Part shown: piece by piece, positions 2,173 through 33,906 of the stretch
Numbering within the stretch: position 1 is the stretch's first letter
Layout of the letters: each line of letters opens with the position of its first letter
Sequence record: PZ583742.1
Reading direction: 5' to 3' (one strand)
DNA length: 64,000 nt
DNA from: a phage
Program-made: the position numbers and the translations under genes
Notes under the pieces: generated by a model
The model's database searches: none
Told to the model about the DNA's origin: nothing
What the model saw: only the letters and a program-made list of their open reading frames with translations

Positions 2173-3851
2173 AGACTTTTAAGCTTAAGAAAGTTATCTA
2201 TAAAAATATTATGTCGGTTGGTGCTCAACCGATTACTGTTGAACTGGATAAAGTCCAAAAAACTCTGGTCACCGGCAAGAATGGTGCGGGTAAATCTACG
2301 TTCCTTGAAGCGGTTACCTTTGCTATGTTCGGTAAGCCTTTCCGTGATGTAAAGAAAGGCCAGTTGATTAACTCGAGCAACAAAAAAGATATGCTCGTTG
2401 AATTGTGGATGGAATATGATGGAAAAGAATACTATATCAAACGCGGGCAAAAACCCAATGTTTTTGAAATCTCTTGTGGCGGTAAACGTCTTGATGAATC
2501 TGCCAGCAGTAAAGACTTCCAAGCGGAATTTGAACAGCTCATCGGAATGTCCTATGCAAGCTTCAAACAGATTGTCGTACTCGGCACAGCTGGATATACC
2601 CCTTTTATGGGCCTATCCACTCCTGCAAGAAGAAAACTTGTCGAAGACCTTTTAGAGGTTTCTGTACTGGCCGATATGGATAAGCTGAACAAATCTCTTA
2701 TCCGCGAAGTCAATAGTCAAATCCAGGTGATGGATGTGCAGCATGACGGGATTGTTCAACAGATTAAAATCTATCAGGACAACGAAGACCGTCAAAGAAA
2801 ATTATCAGGTGATAATCTGTTGCGGCTGCAAACGATGTATGATGAACTTGCCACAGAAGCACGTGGAATCAAGACAACTATCGAAGAAGCAACAACAAGA
2901 CTGACCGAGATAATCTTGGGAGAAGACCCTGAGCATGAACTCACGAAGCTAAAGCAGGAATCATTTCTGATTAAGTCGAAGATAGACGATTACCGAAAGG
3001 TTGTTGGTCTGTACGAGAAAGGTGGTTGTTGTCAGACTTGTGCCAGTCAGTTGCATCCAGGAGACCCTATTGTCGCCAGGATTGAGTCAAAGATTGAAGA
3101 ATGTAATGCATCAGCTGATAAGCATAAAGCTCGCCAGAATGCTGTTCAAGAGCAATTTGATACGTATTCTGCTGCAAGACAAAACCAGCGTACAATAGCC
3201 CAAGACATTCAAACTAAGAAACAAACCTTAATCCAGACTGTTGAAAAGGCTAAAAAGGTTAAAGCATTAATCGAGCAAGCTAAGTCAGAATTCATTGACC
3301 ATGCAGCAGACATTAAAATGCTTCAAGACCAGCTTGATAAAATAGTCAAACAGAAATCTGACCTTGTGATGGAAAAATATCAACGTGGCATCCTAACGGA
3401 TATGTTGAAAGATTCCGGTATCAAAGGCGCGATTATTAAGAAATATATTCCTATCTTTAATAAGCAGATAAACGCTTACCTTAAAGTTATGGAAGCTGAT
3501 TATAGCTTTACGTTAGATGAAGAGTTCAACGAAACTATTAAATCTCGTGGACGTGAAGACTTCAGCTATGCATCATTTAGCCAGGGTGAAAAAGCTCGTA
3601 TCGATATTGCATTGCTGTTTACATGGCGTGATATTGCTGCGAAAGTATCTGGTGTTAATATTAACACCTTGATTCTGGATGAAGTTTTTGACTCGGCCAC
3701 TGATGTAGAGGGTGTTAAAGCAATTGCTACCATCCTGAACAAATTGGAAGACACCAACATCTTTATTATCAGTCACCGAGACCATGACCCGGAAGCATAC
3801 GGGCAACATCTCCAGATGAAAAAAGTTGGTCGATTCACTGTTATGGAATAA
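2169..3851 (+). CDS. 46: recombination endonuclease subunit gp46 (Rad50/SbcC-like ATPase)
   Basis: Walker A GKNGAGKST, central coiled coil with CxxC zinc hook, Walker B LILDEVFD; 560 aa; GTG start. Confidence 0.95.
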   Translation: MKTFKLKKVIYKNIMSVGAQPITVELDKVQKTLVTGKNGAGKSTFLEAVTFAMFGKPFRDVKKGQLINSSNKKDMLVELWMEYDGKEYYIKRGQKPNVFEISCGGKRLDESASSKDFQAEFEQLIGMSYASFKQIVVLGTAGYTPFMGLSTPARRKLVEDLLEVSVLADMDKLNKSLIREVNSQIQVMDVQHDGIVQQIKIYQDNEDRQRKLSGDNLLRLQTMYDELATEARGIKTTIEEATTRLTEIILGEDPEHELTKLKQESFLIKSKIDDYRKVVGLYEKGGCCQTCASQLHPGDPIVARIESKIEECNASADKHKARQNAVQEQFDTYSAARQNQRTIAQDIQTKKQTLIQTVEKAKKVKALIEQAKSEFIDHAADIKMLQDQLDKIVKQKSDLVMEKYQRGILTDMLKDSGIKGAIIKKYIPIFNKQINAYLKVMEADYSFTLDEEFNETIKSRGREDFSYASFSQGEKARIDIALLFTWRDIAAKVSGVNINTLILDEVFDSATDVEGVKAIATILNKLEDTNIFIISHRDHDPEAYGQHLQMKKVGRFTVME

Positions 3852-4101: not shown

Positions 4102-4509
4102 ATGAACAACGTAACTGCTAAAGATATCCAAGTTAAAACCATCCGCACCGACGCTAACCCACACAACCAAAACCGCATCCGCAAATCCTGGGTCCTGGCA
4201 TGTGATGAAGCATCTGCTGCCCGTCTGCAGTCTCTGCCGCAAGAAATTAAATTCATGCTGTACGGTGTGATTGATACTGATGTATCTGATAAGTGGATTG
4301 AACTGATGCGTAATCACTACAACGATTCACTGGCTGCTGGTGCTAAACTGGTTATCGACCGTGACGGTTCCGAACGTCTCGAAGATGATTACTGTGTTGA
4401 CTTCGACGACCACCTGGTCCAAGCTGGTTCTATTATTGCTGCGCAACTTCCAGAGTATATTGAATCTCTTCCGGAAGCTATCCGCAAACAAATGGCAGTT
4501 GTTGCGTGA
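4102..4509 (+). CDS. RpbA-like protein (by position between 46 and 45 and by size)
   Basis: 135-aa ORF with strongly biased codon use; start choice (4084 vs 4102) uncertain. Confidence 0.4.
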   Translation: MNNVTAKDIQVKTIRTDANPHNQNRIRKSWVLACDEASAARLQSLPQEIKFMLYGVIDTDVSDKWIELMRNHYNDSLAAGAKLVIDRDGSERLEDDYCVDFDDHLVQAGSIIAAQLPEYIESLPEAIRKQMAVVA

Positions 4510-5393
4510 ATTTGATTTATAAAATAACCTTTATAACAAGGGAACAAAATAATGAATTCCCTTGTTATTATATTGGTTCAAAGGTTGATACGACATTTAA
4601 TGGCCAAAATATTCTCGATAAAAATAATAAAATTTATACAGGTTCTCCGAATTCAAAATATACTACGCTGTATAATGAATTAATTGATAGCGGTGACTAT
4701 ATTGTTACTATCATTGGGGAAACAAAACAGGACCCAAGGAAAATAGAAAATATTTTTCAAATGTCAGTTAAAGCTGTAACCAATGAGAAATACTTTAATA
4801 AAACGTATGCACACGACAAAAGCCGCTATGATGCTCCTGGATATGCTCCATACCGAAACTTGAAAACGGGTAAAGTTGTTAAATTACATCCATCTGAACT
4901 TACATCTGATTATGTTGGTGTTCGTAAAGATTGTTCAATTTCAGATAAGCACATTCAAGCAATTAAAGACTTCCAAAAAGAATATTGGACTGACGAAGCT
5001 CGACAAGCAAGGTCTGTTGAAGTCAAAAATCGTTATAAAGATGTTGAGTATGCTTTAAAATTCAAAGCTATAATGAATACATCTGAAGTATATGAAAAAT
5101 ATTTAAAATCAATTACTGAATATTGGAATAATTCAGATAATAGAATAAAGGCTTCAAAACGAGCAACCGAACGAAATGCCAACCCTGAATTTAAAGAAAA
5201 ATTTAGGAAATCTAAAGCAAGAGGAACCTGGTTACAGTATGAAGATGAACTTAAAGCATTGTGGAATGCTTTAGGCCAACCAGGGTATATTAAGTTTAGA
5301 AAACACGCCATTGAACATGGGTTTAATGATGAAAACTATCAGGGTGCAATCCGGTCCTGGTCAAATTATTATGTTAATAGGAAAATGAAATGA
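4506..5393 (+). CDS. GIY-YIG-like homing endonuclease (Seg-like), free-standing
   Basis: N-terminal LIYKITF...CYYIGSK motif pair; AT-rich ORF wedged between conserved genes; GTG start. Confidence 0.5.
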   Translation: MNLIYKITFITREQNNEFPCYYIGSKVDTTFNGQNILDKNNKIYTGSPNSKYTTLYNELIDSGDYIVTIIGETKQDPRKIENIFQMSVKAVTNEKYFNKTYAHDKSRYDAPGYAPYRNLKTGKVVKLHPSELTSDYVGVRKDCSISDKHIQAIKDFQKEYWTDEARQARSVEVKNRYKDVEYALKFKAIMNTSEVYEKYLKSITEYWNNSDNRIKASKRATERNANPEFKEKFRKSKARGTWLQYEDELKALWNALGQPGYIKFRKHAIEHGFNDENYQGAIRSWSNYYVNRKMK

Positions 5394-18242: not shown

Positions 18243-18408
18243 GATTTCTGTCTTCCAGATTTTTGAAGAATATGAAATCGTATCGCAAGACCAAGAAGCA
18301 ATCCATGTTATCGCTGATGATGGTGTTACCTGGATTATTCCGTTGTATCATGAAGACACTTATGAAGTGACTGATGCAAATGGTGATAAAGCTATCTTCG
18401 TTGTATAA
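18217..18408 (+). CDS. hypothetical acidic protein (63 aa)
   Basis: ATG with AAGGG upstream. Confidence 0.35.
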   Translation: MSAMCTGSKISVFQIFEEYEIVSQDQEAIHVIADDGVTWIIPLYHEDTYEVTDANGDKAIFVV

Positions 18409-18411
18409 ATA
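18404..18411 (+). promoter_or_regulatory. late promoter motif TATAAATA
   Basis: Exact TATAAATA, 17 nt upstream of ATG 18428. Confidence 0.4.
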
Positions 18412-18427
18412 GCGGAAAGGGGGTGTT

Positions 18428-18595
18428 ATGAAAACATTCAAAGATTTTATCAACGAAAATATGGTTGCCGGTGATGCGGGTGGAAACCCAACTAATATCG
18501 CAACAGGTACCACTTCCGGGGCAGTTGTCAATAAAGGCCCTGAACAAATCCCATCAAAAAAGCGTAAGAACAAAGACGATAAACCTACAGTATAA
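18428..18595 (+). CDS. small Gly/Thr-rich protein (55 aa) with basic tail
   Basis: ATG after AAAGGGGG; below the 60-aa ORF-track cutoff. Confidence 0.35.
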   Translation: MKTFKDFINENMVAGDAGGNPTNIATGTTSGAVVNKGPEQIPSKKRKNKDDKPTV

Positions 18596-18613
18596 TGGTC
18601 CTTCGGGGCCATT
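18594..18613 (+). other. UUCG-tetraloop hairpin before gene 61 SD (no T run)
   Basis: AATGGTCC-TTCG-GGGCCATT, 8-bp stem with one G-U pair. Confidence 0.45.
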
Positions 18614-18627
18614 GAAATGAGGAAACT

Positions 18628-19656
18628 ATGTCATATATTGATAAAGAATTTGCAGTCAGAGCTTTATCGTATCAACCACGTTATAGAGAAGTCACCGGGA
18701 GCACATTTAAAGCAAACTGTCGTTGCAAGGTTTGTGGGGACTCCCAGAAAGATTCACACAAGGCTCGATTCTGGGCGTATACTAATCCGACTGATGGCGC
18801 GGTTTACGTGAAATGTTTTAACTGTGACTACTCCACGCATATAAGCAAATACATAAAAGAGTTTGAGCCGGATTTACACCGGGAATATATGGTTGAGAAG
18901 TATAAGGAGAATGCATTTGGGCGACAACGCACTGAAGTTGCAGAAGCTCCGAAAGAACCAGAAAAAACTCCGGTTATTGAGCAGCTTGCTTTTTGTGAAA
19001 GACTCGATACTTTACCAGAAGCACATCCGATAATTAAGTATGTAAAAAGTCGGTGTATTCCGAGCAATGTTTGGAACCGGTTATGGTTTACAAACAAATG
19101 GCCTGCATTAGTTAACTCCGTTAATCCTGGGACGTATAAGAATGAAACGAATGAACCACGCTTGGTTATTCCTATCTTCAACGGCAAAAAAGAAATCGAA
19201 TCTTTCCAAGGACGAGCTCTTCGCAAAGATGCACCACAAAAATATATCACAATCAAAGCTCACCCAGAAGCTTCCAAAGTCTATGGCGTAGACAAGATTG
19301 ATGAGCGTAAACGCGTATGGGTAATGGAAGGTCCAATTGATAGTTTGTTTATCCCTAACAGCATTGCGATAACCGGTGGAACATTAGCATTGGAAGCTGT
19401 TCCTTACCCAGAAACCAGAGTATGGGTGATGGATTCAGAAGCAAGACATCCTGATACGATTAAACGTATGAAGAAATTAGTCGATGCAGGAGAAGCTGTT
19501 ATGTTCTGGGACAACGCACCGTGGCATACGAAAGATATAAATGAAATGATTAAATCGGAAGGAGCAACGCCTGAGCAAATTGAAGCCTATATGAATGATA
19601 ATATTGCACAAGGTTTAATGGCAAAACTTCGATTATCCAAATATGCAAAAATATGA
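18628..19656 (+). CDS. 61: DNA primase gp61
   Basis: Zinc ribbon CRCKVCGDS...CFNCDY; 342 aa; C-terminal LMAKLRLSKYAKI as in T4 gp61. Confidence 0.95.
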   Translation: MSYIDKEFAVRALSYQPRYREVTGSTFKANCRCKVCGDSQKDSHKARFWAYTNPTDGAVYVKCFNCDYSTHISKYIKEFEPDLHREYMVEKYKENAFGRQRTEVAEAPKEPEKTPVIEQLAFCERLDTLPEAHPIIKYVKSRCIPSNVWNRLWFTNKWPALVNSVNPGTYKNETNEPRLVIPIFNGKKEIESFQGRALRKDAPQKYITIKAHPEASKVYGVDKIDERKRVWVMEGPIDSLFIPNSIAITGGTLALEAVPYPETRVWVMDSEARHPDTIKRMKKLVDAGEAVMFWDNAPWHTKDINEMIKSEGATPEQIEAYMNDNIAQGLMAKLRLSKYAKI

Positions 19657-20420
19657 ATTATCTAAAATTATATAATAAATTAATAGACAAAGGCCTCGCA
19701 AGGGGCCTAAACAAAAAGAATATCCCATTTTATACGGAGTCCCATCATATACTACCAAGGTGTTTGGGTGGACCTGACACCGAAGATAATTTGGTATTGT
19801 TATCAGCAAGAGAACATTTTATTGCACATTTGTTACTTTTTAAAATTTATCGACTTTCTAAATTAATGTTTGCTATACACCGGATGTGCGGTGACAAATT
19901 TGATAGCGCAAAATATGAATGGATGCGAAAAGAACATAGTAAAGCCGTTAGTGAACATATGTCAAACTTATGGAGTCAATCCGAGTTTAAAGACAAAATG
20001 TTAATTGCTTTACACAAGCGACATAACGACCACCCTGTGTCTGATAAAACCAAAAGTAAAATAGCTAACTCATTAAAATTGTATTATCAAAATAATCCAG
20101 TTACTGATGAACAACGGCAAAAGAATCGCGATGCACAAATGAGAAGATTTAAAGAAAATCCGCAAACCGAAGAAACGAAAAAGTTGCGGCGAGAAGCATG
20201 CCGAAAGGCAACTGGAACACCGGTTTGTAGATGCGATGAATTTGGTAATATACTTGAAAAGTATAATTCGGGAGCTGAGGCAAAGGAATTATTACAATTG
20301 GCGGGCAATACTCAAAATATATACACAGCTTGTAAAAGAAATAAAAAGACAGGCCGAATGTATAGGTCAAACGGCCATTTTTGGAAGTATCAAGACGAGG
20401 AAGGGATTCCGGTAAAGTAA
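19653..20420 (+). CDS. HNH homing endonuclease with NUMOD-like DNA-binding repeats
   Basis: HNH core ESHHILPRCLGGPDTEDNLVLLSAREHFIAH; basic repeated C-terminal half; ATGA overlap with gene 61 stop. Confidence 0.7.
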   Translation: MNYLKLYNKLIDKGLARGLNKKNIPFYTESHHILPRCLGGPDTEDNLVLLSAREHFIAHLLLFKIYRLSKLMFAIHRMCGDKFDSAKYEWMRKEHSKAVSEHMSNLWSQSEFKDKMLIALHKRHNDHPVSDKTKSKIANSLKLYYQNNPVTDEQRQKNRDAQMRRFKENPQTEETKKLRREACRKATGTPVCRCDEFGNILEKYNSGAEAKELLQLAGNTQNIYTACKRNKKTGRMYRSNGHFWKYQDEEGIPVK

Positions 20421-20596
20421 CCGATGATGGAATGGATATGTTCCATTGTGACCTGGGGTAAGTGTACCCCTTGTGTTGCAGCGATAGGCACAACCAGTAA
20501 GTTCCACAGGAAAACATCAAGAGCTAAAAAGCCCATGATGAGCTTCTTGTCTTTCTTACTGGTTAATTTCCAAATCTGATAGAATAATGTTCCCAT
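20390..20596 (-). CDS. small single-pass membrane protein (68 aa), paralog A
   Basis: Minus-strand ORF; AGGTGG SD overlaps stop of upstream paralog; TM core FLWNLLVVPIAATQGV. Confidence 0.45.
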   Translation of the reverse strand: MGTLFYQIWKLTSKKDKKLIMGFLALDVFLWNLLVVPIAATQGVHLPQVTMEHIHSIIGYFTGIPSSS

Positions 20597-20604
20597 AGTT
20601 CCAC

Positions 20605-20802
20605 CTATATAAGGCCGATTAATGCCAGTGAAACATCTACAACTGATTCGAGCGCGACGACTGGTAATATAACACCATGTGCCATTGCAACTGGAGCAAC
20701 AATGAAGTTCCAGAGTAGAACTAAACAGAGTACCGAAAGGACCAGAATCGTTCGCTTACGACTGCCTTTGATGGCTTGAATTAGACTAGATAGTTTTAGC
20801 AT
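20605..20802 (-). CDS. small single-pass membrane protein (65 aa), paralog B
   Basis: Minus-strand ORF with GGGGGA SD; TM core LLWNFIVAPVAMAHGV paralogous to 20390-20596. Confidence 0.45.
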   Translation of the reverse strand: MLKLSSLIQAIKGSRKRTILVLSVLCLVLLWNFIVAPVAMAHGVILPVVALESVVDVSLALIGLI

Positions 20803-20824
20803 ACATCCCCCTTTCTTGTATTTA

Positions 20825-20848
20825 TGCTTTAAACCAATACGATATAAT
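20825..20848 (+). promoter_or_regulatory. MotA-box middle promoter candidate for gene 56
   Basis: TGCTTTA 20825-20831, TATAAT 20843-20848. Confidence 0.45.
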
Positions 20849-20886
20849 TAACATACAAACAACATGAATTGATAAGGAAAAATATA

Positions 20887-21405
20887 ATGGCTCATTTTAA
20901 TGAATGTTCTCAACTGATTGCTGGTGTTGATAAAGCTCAGGGCGCTTATGATAATGCAATTTTTGAAGGCACTGACCCACTGCAAGTTATGCTTGATATG
21001 CAGAAATCATTGCAGGTTCGTCTGGCTAAAGAAAAACCAGAATATAACGAACATCCTGATAACCTGGCGACTGCTGGTGAAGTTGTTACCTGGCTCCGCA
21101 ACCAGAAAGATTATATTGATGATGAATTCCGTGAACTGATTACTGCATTAGGTGGCATGTCCAATGGCGAGAAAGCTGCCTCGGCCGTATGGAAACCATG
21201 GAAAGCACAACATGGCGAAATGCAGCAAACCCTGATTAATGATTTATCTCCTGAAGACCAGCTCGAAATTAAATTTGAGATGATTGATATCCTGCACTTT
21301 GTCCTGAACATGTTCCACGGTCTTGGACTGACTGCAGAAGAAATCTTTAAATTGTATTATCTGAAAAATGCCGAAAACTTTGCTCGTCAAGACCGAGGTT
21401 ATTAA
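20887..21405 (+). CDS. 56: dCTP pyrophosphatase gp56 (all-alpha NTP-PPase)
   Basis: MAHFNEC...DPLQVMLDMQ...FKLYYLKNAENFARQDRGY close to T4 gp56; start at 20887 after AAGGA. Confidence 0.85.
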   Translation: MAHFNECSQLIAGVDKAQGAYDNAIFEGTDPLQVMLDMQKSLQVRLAKEKPEYNEHPDNLATAGEVVTWLRNQKDYIDDEFRELITALGGMSNGEKAASAVWKPWKAQHGEMQQTLINDLSPEDQLEIKFEMIDILHFVLNMFHGLGLTAEEIFKLYYLKNAENFARQDRGY

Positions 21406-21686
21406 TGGCTCGATTAAATAAACGTCAGCTTAAGAAAGCTCGCAAGAAATATATTAACGATATAATTGAAAATGTTAATACCGAAATCTTCGTAGAACTC
21501 TTATCTAATCAACTAAAACATTTATCTAAACATGAAATTGATACGAATACTGAAAATGCTAAAAATGTAATTGAAACTCATAATGCTTTTGCTAATGCAA
21601 CAGCAGAATGGATGGCGAATCCTACTGCTGAAAATCTAGCTAAAATGACTGAAGCCAATAAAGCAGTTCAAGCCATCAAATTGTAA
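21405..21686 (+). CDS. hypothetical protein (93 aa)
   Basis: ATGG overlap with gp56 stop; basic N-terminus. Confidence 0.4.
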   Translation: MARLNKRQLKKARKKYINDIIENVNTEIFVELLSNQLKHLSKHEIDTNTENAKNVIETHNAFANATAEWMANPTAENLAKMTEANKAVQAIKL

Positions 21687-25185: not shown

Positions 25186-25231
25186 GATTTCATACTGAGT
25201 TTTCAATCGTCCGTAAGATGAGAAAAATATC

Positions 25232-25978
25232 ATGACTTTATCAAAAACCAAAACGCTGAAAGTTAAACGTCGTCTGGAACACACTCAAGCTTCCGCTAAA
25301 CGTCGCGGTAAAGACTTTAACCTGGATTTTAATTATCTGGTTAACATTCTTGACCAAAAAGTTTGTGCTTATTCTGGTGAAGCATTTAACAACTCTATTG
25401 AAGGTGAGAAGTTATCATTAGAGCGTTTTAACAATGATATTGGTTATATCAAGGGTAATGTTATTCCTGTTAAAAAGAAATACAATACCATGCGTTCTGA
25501 TTGGTCCCTGGATGAGCTTAAACAACGTCGCGATGATGTTGCTGTAAAAATTGCTCGCCCGTCCGTCAAGAAGATTGAAAAGTTAAATCTGACAGCAGAG
25601 AAATGGGAACAGATTAAAAAGTCGTATACCCATATTAAGAACATCCAACACAAACGTGATAATCGCGTTAAGCATTATGCTCAAATGAGTAAATCAGAGC
25701 AGTCCAAAGAAAACCAATTAAAAATGATTGCTCTGAAGGCTCGCATTGATGGTTCCCGTGTTGCAGAAGGTCATGAGCTTACTAAATTGAATGTCCTGCT
25801 CAAAGGTAATGACTGGAAGGTTACCAAGAAATTAACTAATGCTGAAACGCTTTTTGATTGCTATGATAAAATCATTCAAGGTCTTGAGCGTTTTGAGAAG
25901 ATTGGTTTTATTGGTAAATTAAAACTGAAACGTGGTCTACCTTTGAACGCGTCAATTTTTAAACTGATTAGAGGTTAA
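25232..25978 (+). CDS. hypothetical basic protein (248 aa), Srd-like by position and size only
   Basis: Lies between the transferase pair and dda as T4 srd does. Confidence 0.3.
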   Translation: MTLSKTKTLKVKRRLEHTQASAKRRGKDFNLDFNYLVNILDQKVCAYSGEAFNNSIEGEKLSLERFNNDIGYIKGNVIPVKKKYNTMRSDWSLDELKQRRDDVAVKIARPSVKKIEKLNLTAEKWEQIKKSYTHIKNIQHKRDNRVKHYAQMSKSEQSKENQLKMIALKARIDGSRVAEGHELTKLNVLLKGNDWKVTKKLTNAETLFDCYDKIIQGLERFEKIGFIGKLKLKRGLPLNASIFKLIRG

Positions 25979-31051: not shown

Positions 31052-31312
31052 ATGAAATACATTAATCGTTCTATTGCAGCACTGGTACTGGCGGTTTCAT
31101 TGGCTAGTTGTACTGATGCAGATAATGCCATTCGTGTATTAGATGCAAACGGCTATGAACAAATCCAAATCACCGGTTATAACTGGTTGGGTTGCTCTGA
31201 AGATGATTTCCAACACACAGGCTTTACGGCCGTAGGGCCAACTGGTAAGAAAGTTAAAGGAACTGTTTGTTCTGGATTGCTGTTTAAGAATTCAACCATT
31301 CGATTTGAATAA
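31052..31312 (+). CDS. predicted lipoprotein (86 aa)
   Basis: Signal peptide with lipobox LASC; GAGGA SD. Confidence 0.5.
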   Translation: MKYINRSIAALVLAVSLASCTDADNAIRVLDANGYEQIQITGYNWLGCSEDDFQHTGFTAVGPTGKKVKGTVCSGLLFKNSTIRFE

Positions 31313-31329
31313 GGCCTTCGGGCCTTTTT
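31312..31329 (+). terminator. intrinsic terminator (UUCG tetraloop)
   Basis: AGGCC-TTCG-GGCCT then TTTT. Confidence 0.55.
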
Positions 31330-31353
31330 GCTTTAAAATATGTGACTTATAAT
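31329..31353 (+). promoter_or_regulatory. MotA-box middle promoter candidate
   Basis: TGCTTTA 31329-31335, TATAAT 31348-31353. Confidence 0.45.
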
Positions 31354-31359
31354 ACCTCC

Positions 31360-32067
31360 ATGAACTTAAAACAATTTATTGAAGAAAATCTTTTAACTAA
31401 GAACCCGAATCGTCTTAACGGTAATTTGTTCAAAAATGATTTAGAATTTGCCAAGAAATTCTGGGAAAAATATCCAGAAGAAGCAAATGTCTTTAGAACA
31501 GAAGCACTGCATTGTCAAGGAGGTAAAAGAGACCAACATCCGTACAATGAGGTCTGCTACCGTATTTTACATGATATAAAAGGAAAAGTCTTATGTAAGT
31601 GTGGTAAACCTGTTAACTATCATACATTTGCTACTGGCTACCATGAATTTTGTTCCGTTAAATGTCAGGGTGGTGGTATATTTGAAGAAGAGCGTATTTG
31701 TCCTGTTTGCGATACTAAGTATATGGCTACGAATAGGACTCAAAAATATTGTTCAGATTCCTGTGGTAAAGAAGCAAGAGATACTCAATCACTGGACTTG
31801 CCATATAGTCATTCCATAAAGATGAAAAAGCGCGACGTTTTGAAGTTAATTGAGGATACTCCGTATTGTGAAATTTGTAAAATAAAACTAACAAACAATT
31901 CGACTTCTTTATCAAAAAGCACTTGGTTCAATGTAGACCATTGCCACTCGACTGGTAAAGTCCGAGGTATTTTATGTTCAAAATGCAACATAGGCCTAGG
32001 AATGTTTAAAGACAATATTGCTTCATTAGAAACTGCGATAGAATACTTGAAACAAAGCAAGGAATAA
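31360..32067 (+). CDS. endonuclease VII-like His-Me finger nuclease with N-terminal zinc fingers (putative homing endonuclease)
   Basis: C-terminal DHCHSTGKVRGILCSKCNIGLG; several Cys pairs; first ATG (31360) near the predicted transcript start, so start uncertain. Confidence 0.55.
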   Translation: MNLKQFIEENLLTKNPNRLNGNLFKNDLEFAKKFWEKYPEEANVFRTEALHCQGGKRDQHPYNEVCYRILHDIKGKVLCKCGKPVNYHTFATGYHEFCSVKCQGGGIFEEERICPVCDTKYMATNRTQKYCSDSCGKEARDTQSLDLPYSHSIKMKKRDVLKLIEDTPYCEICKIKLTNNSTSLSKSTWFNVDHCHSTGKVRGILCSKCNIGLGMFKDNIASLETAIEYLKQSKE

Positions 32068-32073
32068 TTGATT

Positions 32074-33906
32074 ATGATTGAAAATAAAATTGAAATGCTT
32101 TCAGATAAAGACCATTGTTTGAAACGTCCGGGAATGTACATCGGAAGTGTTTCATATGAAGAATACGAAAGATTTTTATTTGGTGAGTATACTAAAGTAT
32201 CTTATGTGGCGGGTGTATTAAAACTAGTTGATGAGATTATCGACAACTCGGTTGATGAAGCTATACGTACAAATTTCAAATTTGCCAATAAAATTTCCGT
32301 TGATATCTCTTTGACTGATAACAAAGTTACTGTTGAAGATAATGGTCGTGGTATTCCGCAGGCTGTTGTCATAACTCCAGAAGGTGAAGAATTACCTGGC
32401 CCTGTAGCGGCCTGGACGAAAACCAAAGCGGGTGGGAATTTCGGTGATGATAAAGAACGTGTAACCGGCGGCCAGAATGGTGTTGGTTCAAGTCTTACCA
32501 ATATTTTTTCAATCCTTTTTACTGGGACCACATCTGACGGTAAAAATGAGCTTCGTGTAAGTTGTTCAAATAATGCCGATAATGTATCATGGAAAACCAA
32601 ACCAACCAAATCCAATGGTACCAAGGTTGAGTTTATTCCAGACTTTAGTCATTTTGAAATGAACAGTTTTGATAAAATTTATCTGGATATTACACTTGAC
32701 CGTCTGCAGACTCTTGCTGTTGTTTATCCTGATATTGAATTCAAATTCAATGGTAAAAAGGTACAAGGTCAGTTTAAAAAGTTTGCTAAACAATATGATG
32801 ATGAAATCATTATCCAGGAACAAGATAATTGCTCAATTGCAATCGGTCGGTCACCTGACGGATTCAGACATCTGACATATGTCAACAACATCCACACAAA
32901 AAATGGTGGACACCATATTGAATGCGTTATGGATGAAATGTGTGATGTGTTAATCCCGGCGATTAAACGCAAGTATAAAATTGAAGTAACCAAAGCACGC
33001 GTTAAAGAATGTATTACATTGTTGATGTTTATTCGCAATATGAAGAACATGCGATTTGATTCCCAGACCAAGGAGCGATTGACTTCCACTGCCGGTGAAA
33101 TTAAATCACATATCCAGGTCAATGGCAAAAAGTTAGCTGGTTCGTTGTTAAAATCAGAAGCTATTCTGACGCCTATCATTGAAGCTGCATTGGCTCGTAA
33201 ATTGGCTGCAGAGAAAGCAGCAGAGACTAAAGCAAATAAGAAAGCTTCAAAGGCCAAGGTACAAAAGCATATCAAAGCCAACGAATGGGGTAATGATAAG
33301 CTGGAAACGACTCTATTCCTGACCGAAGGAGATTCTGCAACGGGTCCGTTTATCAAGGTTCGTGACCGTGAATTGCAAGGTGCTTATCCGTTACGTGGTA
33401 AGTTTAAAAACACATGGGGTCTGAAAGCTGTTGAAGTTATGAAGAACGCTGAAGCCTTTGATGTGTGTGCGATTACTGGTTTAACGATTGGACAACCGGC
33501 CGAGAATATGAATTACCGAAACATTGCTATCATGACAGATGCGGATGTGGATGGTGTTGGTAGTATCTATCCATCGTTATTGGCGTTTTTCAGTAACTGG
33601 CCAGAGCTGTTCCATGAAGGACGAATTCGCTTTGTGAAAACTCCTGTTATTATTGCACAGCTCAAAGATAAACAAGAATGGTTCTATTCTCTTCCTGATT
33701 ACGAAGAAGCTAAGGATAAACTTCCGAAGCATACCATTCGATATATCAAGGGGCTTGGTTCTCTGGAAGATTCAGAGTACAAACGCGTATTGCTCGAGCC
33801 AGTATTCGAAGTTGTTCAATTGCCCGACAATTGGAAAGAACTGTTCGAAATGCTATTCGGTAAAGATTCCCAGCAGCGTAAAGACTGGATGAATGCGACG
33901 CTATAA
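32074..33906 (+). CDS. 39: DNA topoisomerase II large subunit (gp39 with the gene-60 part contiguous)
   Basis: GyrB-like ATPase N-terminus, TOPRIM LTEGDSATGP; single 610-aa frame. Confidence 0.9.
   Translation: MIENKIEMLSDKDHCLKRPGMYIGSVSYEEYERFLFGEYTKVSYVAGVLKLVDEIIDNSVDEAIRTNFKFANKISVDISLTDNKVTVEDNGRGIPQAVVITPEGEELPGPVAAWTKTKAGGNFGDDKERVTGGQNGVGSSLTNIFSILFTGTTSDGKNELRVSCSNNADNVSWKTKPTKSNGTKVEFIPDFSHFEMNSFDKIYLDITLDRLQTLAVVYPDIEFKFNGKKVQGQFKKFAKQYDDEIIIQEQDNCSIAIGRSPDGFRHLTYVNNIHTKNGGHHIECVMDEMCDVLIPAIKRKYKIEVTKARVKECITLLMFIRNMKNMRFDSQTKERLTSTAGEIKSHIQVNGKKLAGSLLKSEAILTPIIEAALARKLAAEKAAETKANKKASKAKVQKHIKANEWGNDKLETTLFLTEGDSATGPFIKVRDRELQGAYPLRGKFKNTWGLKAVEVMKNAEAFDVCAITGLTIGQPAENMNYRNIAIMTDADVDGVGSIYPSLLAFFSNWPELFHEGRIRFVKTPVIIAQLKDKQEWFYSLPDYEEAKDKLPKHTIRYIKGLGSLEDSEYKRVLLEPVFEVVQLPDNWKELFEMLFGKDSQQRKDWMNATL

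Follow-up and report, generated by a model that had tools for sequence, protein, structure and literature searches.

Known Mob endonucleases and the gene 61 locus

The mob genes of phage T4 encode proteins in which an HNH domain is joined to a distinct C-terminal region, and two of the products, MobA and MobE, nick their targets, cutting away from their own insertion site (PMC2988022, PMC2790892). Free-standing endonucleases of this sort cut a conserved neighbouring gene, often hundreds of base pairs (bp) off (PMC2790892, PMC2988022), and several mob genes are promoterless (PMC2988022). Most Mob enzymes remain uncharacterised. Here, we describe a gene of this family in sequence record PZ583742.1, a 64,000-nucleotide (nt) stretch of phage DNA (the window, by which we mean the whole stretch that was analysed). 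The sequence-only reading, an earlier annotation made from the letters of the window, had placed an HNH homing endonuclease directly 3′ of the primase gene 61, and our sequence tests support that placement. Judged by similarity, the window derives from a T4-like coliphage of the Gaprivervirus group, its 18–22 kb region matching phages RZ, DK-13, Yersinia P8, UPEC01, VR20, SP18 and VR7 at 89–96%. We put at roughly 85% the probability that the open reading frame (ORF) is an intact Mob-family HNH homing endonuclease gene inserted at the 3′ end of gene 61 and spreading by homing into alleles that lack it (carrier-less alleles, as opposed to carriers). The locus comprises:

18628..19656, + strand: gene 61, DNA primase, 342 amino acids (aa), the upstream neighbour and presumed target gene (annotated homologues, alignment with T4 gp61)
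19653..20420, + strand: free-standing HNH homing endonuclease gene of the Mob family, 255 aa, ATG start (PHROG 655 and MobB similarity)
20390..20596, − strand: convergent small membrane-protein ORF, 68 aa, PHROG 2024, at the right border of the insertion

The endonuclease ATG (19653–19655) shares bases with the gene 61 TGA (19654–19656) in an ATGA, as the claimed overlap of start and stop required, and the protein begins MNYLKLYNKLI...YTESHHILPRCLGGPDTEDNLVLLSAREHFIAH. Its gene stands between gene 61 and the convergent ORF. A location within an intron or intein is ruled out, as gene 61 is complete, uninterrupted and has its own stop.

Similarity searches place the protein among the free-standing HNH homing endonucleases of the T4 Mob family, with MobB as the nearest named relative (tblastn: T4 MobB, 48% identity over 129 aa, E value 3e-32; T4 MobD, 41% identity over 165 aa, E value 4e-25). 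Among the predicted viral structures of BFVD, MobB (P13329) was likewise the best named match (E value 1.9e-15), followed by MobC (2e-9) and many entries named 'Mob-like'. The window protein and MobB have the same first residues (MNY) and identical HNH residues, with about 65% identity by eye over the N-terminal ~80 aa; a C-terminal module ending G-x-x-W-K/A-Y is present in each, and both genes are free-standing in an early-gene region. They differ in position, as mobB sits between alpha-gt and alpha-gt.2, and in architecture, as MobB has no helical repeats and carries a pair of C-terminal beta/helix modules (each ending G[FY]xW[KA]Y), whereas the window protein has three repeats and one module. 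Moreover, mobB has its own upstream promoter (PMC2988022), whereas the window gene appears to lack one.

By analogy, MobE would be the best working model for the mechanism of the window endonuclease. Located between nrdA and nrdB and nicking nrdB of T2, it belongs to the same family, has the same two-part architecture and has no promoter, relying on upstream transcription. Its target lies in a conserved neighbour gene at conserved codons, with carrier polymorphisms and a co-converted flank (PMC2790892); a comparable target is proposed below for the window endonuclease. The sequence similarity between the two proteins is limited to the HNH domain, the neighbour genes differ, and mobE has an internal terminator, whereas terminator-like matches in the window gene do not exceed the shuffled expectation. 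Nicking and homing have been demonstrated for MobE, whereas we infer them for the window endonuclease. A third described enzyme, the nicking endonuclease I-HmuI of Bacillus phage SPO1, resembles the window protein in combining an extended HNH domain with NUMOD-type modules, and 6/39 homologues of the window protein match the I-HmuI NUMOD-like model. However, I-HmuI is intron-encoded whereas the window gene is free-standing, and neither the sequence search nor the fold search of solved structures returned I-HmuI, so that the relationship is remote.

The closest known counterparts are the genes of RZ, DK-13, P8 and Dhakavirus Bp7, which occupy the same gene 61 junction and are already annotated as 'homing endonuclease' in RefSeq/GenBank; a literature search found no paper studying the endonuclease of the window or of any of these phages. 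The kind of gene is thus already known, and what is added here is confined to the comparative traces of its movement and a target prediction. By itself, the endonuclease is one more selfish gene in a phage group full of them. The locus has modest value as a clean natural example: its empty site is defined, the carrier-specific flank has sharp bounds and lies within an essential gene, the right junction comes in two forms, and a single site holds four diverged orthologues.

Catalytic core and C-terminal half

The features of the protein, in order along the + strand, are:

19734..19850, + strand: HNH (beta-beta-alpha-metal) catalytic core, residues 28–66 (invariant columns, AlphaFold2 (AF2) model, family profile against solved HNH domains)
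20034..20222, + strand: three tandem 21-aa basic helical repeats, NUMOD3-like, residues 128–190 (repeat pattern, predicted helices)
20223..20393, + strand: beta-beta-helix-helix-beta-beta module, residues 191–247, ending ...GHFWKYQ (AF2 secondary structure)
20394..20420, + strand: eight-codon C-terminal extension (DEEGIPVK) and stop (junction alignments)

The clear HNH core that had been described is complete, with H31/H32, N46, H55 and H59 all present in ...YTESHHILPRCLGGPDTEDNLVLLSAREHFIAH... In alignments with 38 and 56 homologues, drawn from a search of 5.8 billion proteins, residues E29, H31, H32, I33, P35, G39, G40, N46, H55, H59 and L62 are invariant. The AF2 model (mean predicted local distance difference test score, pLDDT, 88.9; 95–98 in the core) shows strands at 28–32 and 47–51 followed by a helix at 52–66, an order that would correspond to the beta-beta-alpha-metal layout. 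The conserved residues would supply the catalytic His closing the first strand, the structural Asn and the metal-binding His on the helix. The protein matches PHROG 655 'homing endonuclease' (E value 6e-45). Comparison of the family profile with solved HNH domains returned a group II intron maturase (E value 6e-5) and Cas8-HNH (2.5e-4), with whose HNH motifs H31-H32, N46, H55 and H59 align. Across 39 homologues, Pfam detected HNH in 23 (E value ≤ 0.01), NUMOD3 in 22, I-HmuI NUMOD-like in six and NUMOD1 in five.

The C-terminal half had been described as basic and repeat-rich, and this also held: it contains the three 21-aa repeats, and residues 120–255 hold 29 K+R against 17 D+E. The repeats have the form P-x-[ST]-[DE]-x-x-[KR]..., with one AF2-predicted helix each (131–147, 152–168 and 173–186), and are presumed to be DNA-contacting linker modules. 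The final module, residues 191–247, is presumed from its modelled fold to be a sequence-specific DNA-binding domain of the NUMOD1/IENR1 type.

Distribution and the empty site

In a phage collection of 50,697 records, only four records, representing three phages, contain full-length DNA matches (P8, 99.0% nt identity; RZ, 97.9%; DK-13, 97.8%), and their proteins are 98–99.6% identical to the window endonuclease. A Gaprivervirus gene 61 end without the endonuclease was found in 30 further records, representing 25 phages, so that 3/28 sequenced Gapriverviruses of the collection carry the gene. The junction comparison with relatives that the sequence-only reading had proposed therefore gives a sporadic endonuclease, absent from 25 of the 28 Gapriverviruses and not shared by all relatives at this site. 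UPEC01, P479 and VR7 have an empty site, in which the gene 61 stop adjoins the convergent 66–68-aa ORF; in UPEC01, gene 61 ends at 3158 and the convergent ORF spans 3155–3355.

Directly after gene 61 and ahead of gene 56, diverged orthologues are found in Dhakavirus Bp7 (55% aa identity, ATGA overlap), in a metagenomic T4-like contig (L011; 66% aa identity) and in a 181-kb metagenomic contig (L095; 47% aa identity, ATGA overlap). Dhakaviruses dhaeg and CLB_P2 have an empty site after gene 61. Searches of IMG/VR with back-translated patterns found no close relatives there.

Among the four close copies, the more distant show 6–8 synonymous vs 0–2 non-synonymous differences over 246 codons, and the RZ and DK-13 endonucleases are one substitution apart; by this comparison, the endonuclease is under purifying selection and is kept functional. 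These counts bear on an alternative that we consider improbable, namely that a Mob-type gene no longer homes here, being either a vertically inherited and often-lost relic or a gene kept for some other benefit, such as excluding competitor markers or regulation. At this site, the orthologues of four lineages have diverged roughly as far as gp61 itself (47–66% vs 61–71% aa identity), which is compatible with long vertical residence and loss, and defunct endonucleases are known in T4, e.g. I-TevIII (PMC2790892). However, the excess of synonymous differences and the fully intact set of catalytic residues argue against this alternative.

A carrier-specific tract at the 3′ end of gene 61

A clear trace of movement lies upstream of the endonuclease, within the primase gene:

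19428..19656, + strand: endonuclease-linked divergent 3′ tract, gene 61 positions 801–1029 (informative-site table), reaching upstream to about 19374 in the window

Gene 61 of the window is 97% identical to that of carrier-less UPEC01 over its first 700 nt and 84% over its last 312 nt, and mismatches per 60 nt against carrier-less phages climb toward the insertion (5, 7, 9, 9, 16). Over the 313-nt end of the gene, the four carriers share 98–99% identity, and the highest identity to any of the other records among the 50,697 is 85.5%. Within positions 801–1029, 48 sites separate the four carriers without exception from the three carrier-less Gapriverviruses in the comparison. Where the tract begins upstream varies: between gene positions 760 and 801 in DK-13 and between 708 and 747 in the window, RZ and P8. 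G+C content is 41.7% over gene 61 positions 1–800, 37.1% over positions 801–1029 and 35.8% in the endonuclease ORF. The same picture was obtained in Dhakavirus, where Bp7 and dhaeg differ by 1–5 mismatches per 60 nt over the first 660 nt of the gene and then by 7, 13, 23, 19, 24 and 20.

The right flank is ordinary and, in these alignments, without linkage to the endonuclease: over its first 600 nt downstream, the window shows one difference from carrier-less P479, as against 39 from RZ, 32 from P8 and 23 from DK-13. A linked flank on the left side only is expected if conversion begins in gene 61 and runs rightward through the endonuclease gene. From the comparison of alleles, we infer that the carrier-specific 3′ haplotype of gene 61 arose by co-conversion of flanking markers with the endonuclease. 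Primase 3′ ends in these phages are not dependable as phylogenetic markers.

The divergent gene 61 end and the patchy ORF could instead reflect general mosaic recombination among T4-like phages, with an accessory gene in a hypervariable spot and no endonuclease-initiated conversion. The interval between gene 61 and soc is indeed variable (dam in T4; segF in VR7, P479 and T4; an extra ORF in DK-13; a MobD-like gene in the genome L022), and mosaic patches occur further upstream within gene 61 too. Yet the divergent tract stops exactly at the ORF and occurs with the ORF alone (4/4 carrier vs 0/30 carrier-less Gaprivervirus records), its divergence grows toward the insertion, and the pattern recurs independently in Dhakavirus. 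In addition, the ORF has a nuclease active site, and tested members of its family cause exactly such a pattern (PMC2790892). We therefore regard general mosaicism as a very improbable account of the tract, and endonuclease-driven co-conversion as the better one. The variable tract boundaries and the foreign look of the linked gene 61 end also argue against a gene that has ceased to home, as does the near-identity of the window's right flank to carrier-less phages.

Over the regions compared, no single record of the phage collection matches the window's combination of the gene 61 endonuclease, an ORF beside gene 45 and a UPEC01-like interval between genes 56 and soc, so that the window appears to be a distinct mosaic.

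Two right-hand junctions

Two right junctions were found among Gaprivervirus copies that are otherwise ~98% identical. In RZ and DK-13, the ORF ends TGGAAGTACGCAAAAGTTTAG and the protein ...WKYAKV* (the asterisk marks the stop), and the exact recipient sequence GAAGTACGCAAAAGTTTAG is retained. From GAAGTA on, this end is identical to the gene 61 end at the empty site (TCGAAGTACGCAAAAGTTTAG), so that the final 19 nt of the former gene 61 form the insert's right edge and provide the last codons of the endonuclease (AKV*). In place of this patch, the window carries TCAAGACGA and P8 carries TCAAGATGA; the stop is lost in both, and the ORF continues to ...EGIPVK*, giving proteins that end ...WKYQD[ED]EGIPVK*, as opposed to the ...WKYAKV* that RZ and DK-13 have through the retained gene 61 end. 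The last six codons of the window extension (EGIPVK) read through sequence that is found just past the gene 61 stop in carrier-less phages, where the same frame reads ...SKYAKV*EGIPVK. The orthologues end ...WKYQ*, ...WKYH* and ...WKYK*, which places the natural C-terminus just past WKY.

The two patches are five substitutions and a 3-nt gap apart within 12 nt, so that neither is a simple mutational derivative of the other. The RZ-type junction may have arisen by repair that was resolved at the GAAGTA common to the endonuclease and gene 61 ends, and would then be a trace of entry into a previously empty genome. The loss of the ancestral stop and the gain of an eight-codon tail in the window are what a decaying, vertically inherited gene might also show. 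Against this, the existence of two right junctions, one of them keeping recipient sequence, implies more than one recent recombination event bringing the endonuclease into Gaprivervirus backgrounds.

The endonuclease 3′ end overlaps the convergent ORF by 31 nt in the window. That ORF is intact in the window and UPEC01 but has lost 26 bp in RZ and DK-13 and ~97 bp in P8, and has gained one base in VR7; it therefore seems dispensable. The possibility that these deletions are an effect of the endonuclease was considered and found unsupported, as the ORF is intact in the window and carries a likely frame-disrupting insertion in VR7, which has no endonuclease. Two paralogous small hydrophobic ORFs, at 20390–20596 (− strand, 68 aa) and 20605–20802 (− strand, 65 aa), both PHROG 2024, converge on gene 61.

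Expression signals

Searches for expression signals of the endonuclease gene's own were negative. No T4 late promoter (TATAAATA) was found on the + strand over 18405–21500, no MotA box upstream of the endonuclease and no Shine–Dalgarno sequence before its ATG; gene 61 has GAGGAAA. Matches to sigma-70-like promoters and to terminators were at background, not above the shuffled expectation, and the RNA structure predicted around the start (19615–19735) is not unusual (z = −1.3). From these searches and the ATGA overlap, the gene resembles a cassette without a promoter of its own that is translated through coupling to gene 61.

A candidate target site and a model for homing

To locate a possible target, 41 gene 61 ends of carrier-less T4-like phages (from IMG/VR and the phage collection) were aligned with those of three carrier lineages. 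Only three positions are at least 80% conserved in the carrier-less alleles yet altered in all three carrier lineages, and two of the three are the Asn and Pro codons of the motif V-[ML]-D-N-E-P-R-H-P-D:

19425..19460, no strand assigned: candidate recognition or cleavage region in carrier-less alleles, DNEPRHPD codons (hypothetical); the window reads DSEARHPD, presumably an immune allele

Carrier-less alleles read D[N/H]E[P/A/C]R, whereas the carriers read DSEAR (Gaprivervirus), DSESR (Bp7) and DSESR (L011); the fourth carrier lineage, L095, which was found later, reads DAEPR. For the first three lineages, Fisher's exact test of motif change against carriage gave p = 7e-4, a result that is a lead rather than proof because the lineages may share the flank through descent. 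The site is upstream of the insertion by ~215 nt, where the tract of DK-13, the shortest, has its inner edge.

The endonuclease may thus attack carrier-less gene 61 alleles within their last ~270 nt, with the DNEPR codons as the best candidate site. In the scheme that we favour, the endonuclease gene would be transcribed with gene 61 and translated at a low level through the ATGA coupling. In a mixed infection with an endonuclease-less phage, the protein would bind through its C-terminal modules, and the N-terminal HNH domain would nick or cut the carrier-less gene 61 in that region, perhaps at the DNEPR codons. Recombination-dependent repair would then copy the donor from the break through the endonuclease gene, so that the donor gene 61 end spreads along with it, and the carrier allele, with DSEAR and many silent changes, would escape cutting. 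Such a target would add primase to the short list of Mob target genes.

Several observations weigh against this reading of the protein and, above all, of its target. The Pfam HNH match (PF01844) scores 19.9 bits (E value 8e-4), under the curated cutoff of 21.4 bits. A Foldseek search of solved structures returned HNH domains in every match but at weak scores (E value ≥ 0.19). Pfam matched neither NUMOD3 nor NUMOD1 in the endonuclease itself, and with HNH as the sole Pfam match, the NUMOD assignment of the C-terminal half rests on the predicted structure and the relatives. The published entry for MobB, the closest relative with a name, reads 'ND, target unknown' (PMC2988022). As for the target, the argument is correlational, and the whole tract is co-inherited, so that the altered motif may simply have been carried along. 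Some carrier-less lineages also vary at the Asn position (to His), and two T4-like sequences from IMG/VR that have no endonuclease after gene 61 (L029 and L032) carry DSEQR, not DNEPR; these may be alleles with natural resistance, or the lineages may have lost the endonuclease. Finally, the cuts of free-standing endonucleases can fall hundreds to thousands of bp away from the gene that encodes the enzyme, so that the target could lie elsewhere.

A more far-reaching version of the scheme can be offered tentatively, and we think it rather less probable than its negation. It supposes that the DNEPR codons are recognised and that all carrier lineages escaped through a change of the Asn (to Ser or Ala), three of the four through a change of the Pro as well. 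The nuclease would then drive recurrent replacement in the primase and export chimeric primase 3′ ends between T4-like genera, and the RZ/DK-13 junction would be a repair fossil at a 6-nt microhomology. If true, a selfish nuclease would be the force behind repeated amino-acid changes in an essential replication enzyme, at one of its conserved motifs.

Other endonuclease-like genes

The sequence-only reading had counted three endonuclease classes at replication-gene junctions in the window. This claim was confirmed in part. The Endonuclease VII gene is real: the ORF at 31309–32067 (+ strand) has a C-terminal Endonuclease VII domain (PF02945, E value 5e-18) and adjoins the ORF at 32068–33906, whose position suggests the topoisomerase large-subunit gene 39. 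The first of the two probably encodes a further free-standing endonuclease of the homing type, at the junction that holds mobA in T4. The GIY-YIG label given to the ORF at 4506–5393 (+ strand), upstream of gene 45, did not find domain-model support, and remains unconfirmed: no Pfam family, GIY-YIG included, matched even at E value ≤ 10. That ORF does match PHROG 7504 'homing endonuclease' (E value 2e-13) and has a YKITFI...YYIGSK motif; it is sporadic too, occurring at >95% identity only in phages VR26 and TH15.

By comparison of the genomes, mobile endonuclease genes have a hot spot in the interval between gene 61 and soc. In T4, dam follows gene 61. In an IMG/VR dhakavirus-like genome, a MobD-like HNH gene lies just upstream of gene 56 (L022, 2787–3443), and segF follows gene 56 in P479, VR7 and T4 (L005, 3150–3806; L006, 3152–3823). 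DK-13 has an extra 834-nt ORF after gene 56 (L004, 4717–5550). An apparent Mob-like HNH ORF starting inside a broken gene 61 (L070, 1501–3200) was rejected as evidence, since the internal duplications and frameshifts of that contig suggest faulty assembly, not a split primase.

Elsewhere in the window, the ORF at 25217–25978 (+ strand) matches the Srd anti-sigma factor family (PHROG 1400, E value 3e-98), and its N-terminal part gives weaker matches to endonuclease, HNH and Endonuclease VII PHROGs (E values 6e-20 to 2e-8).

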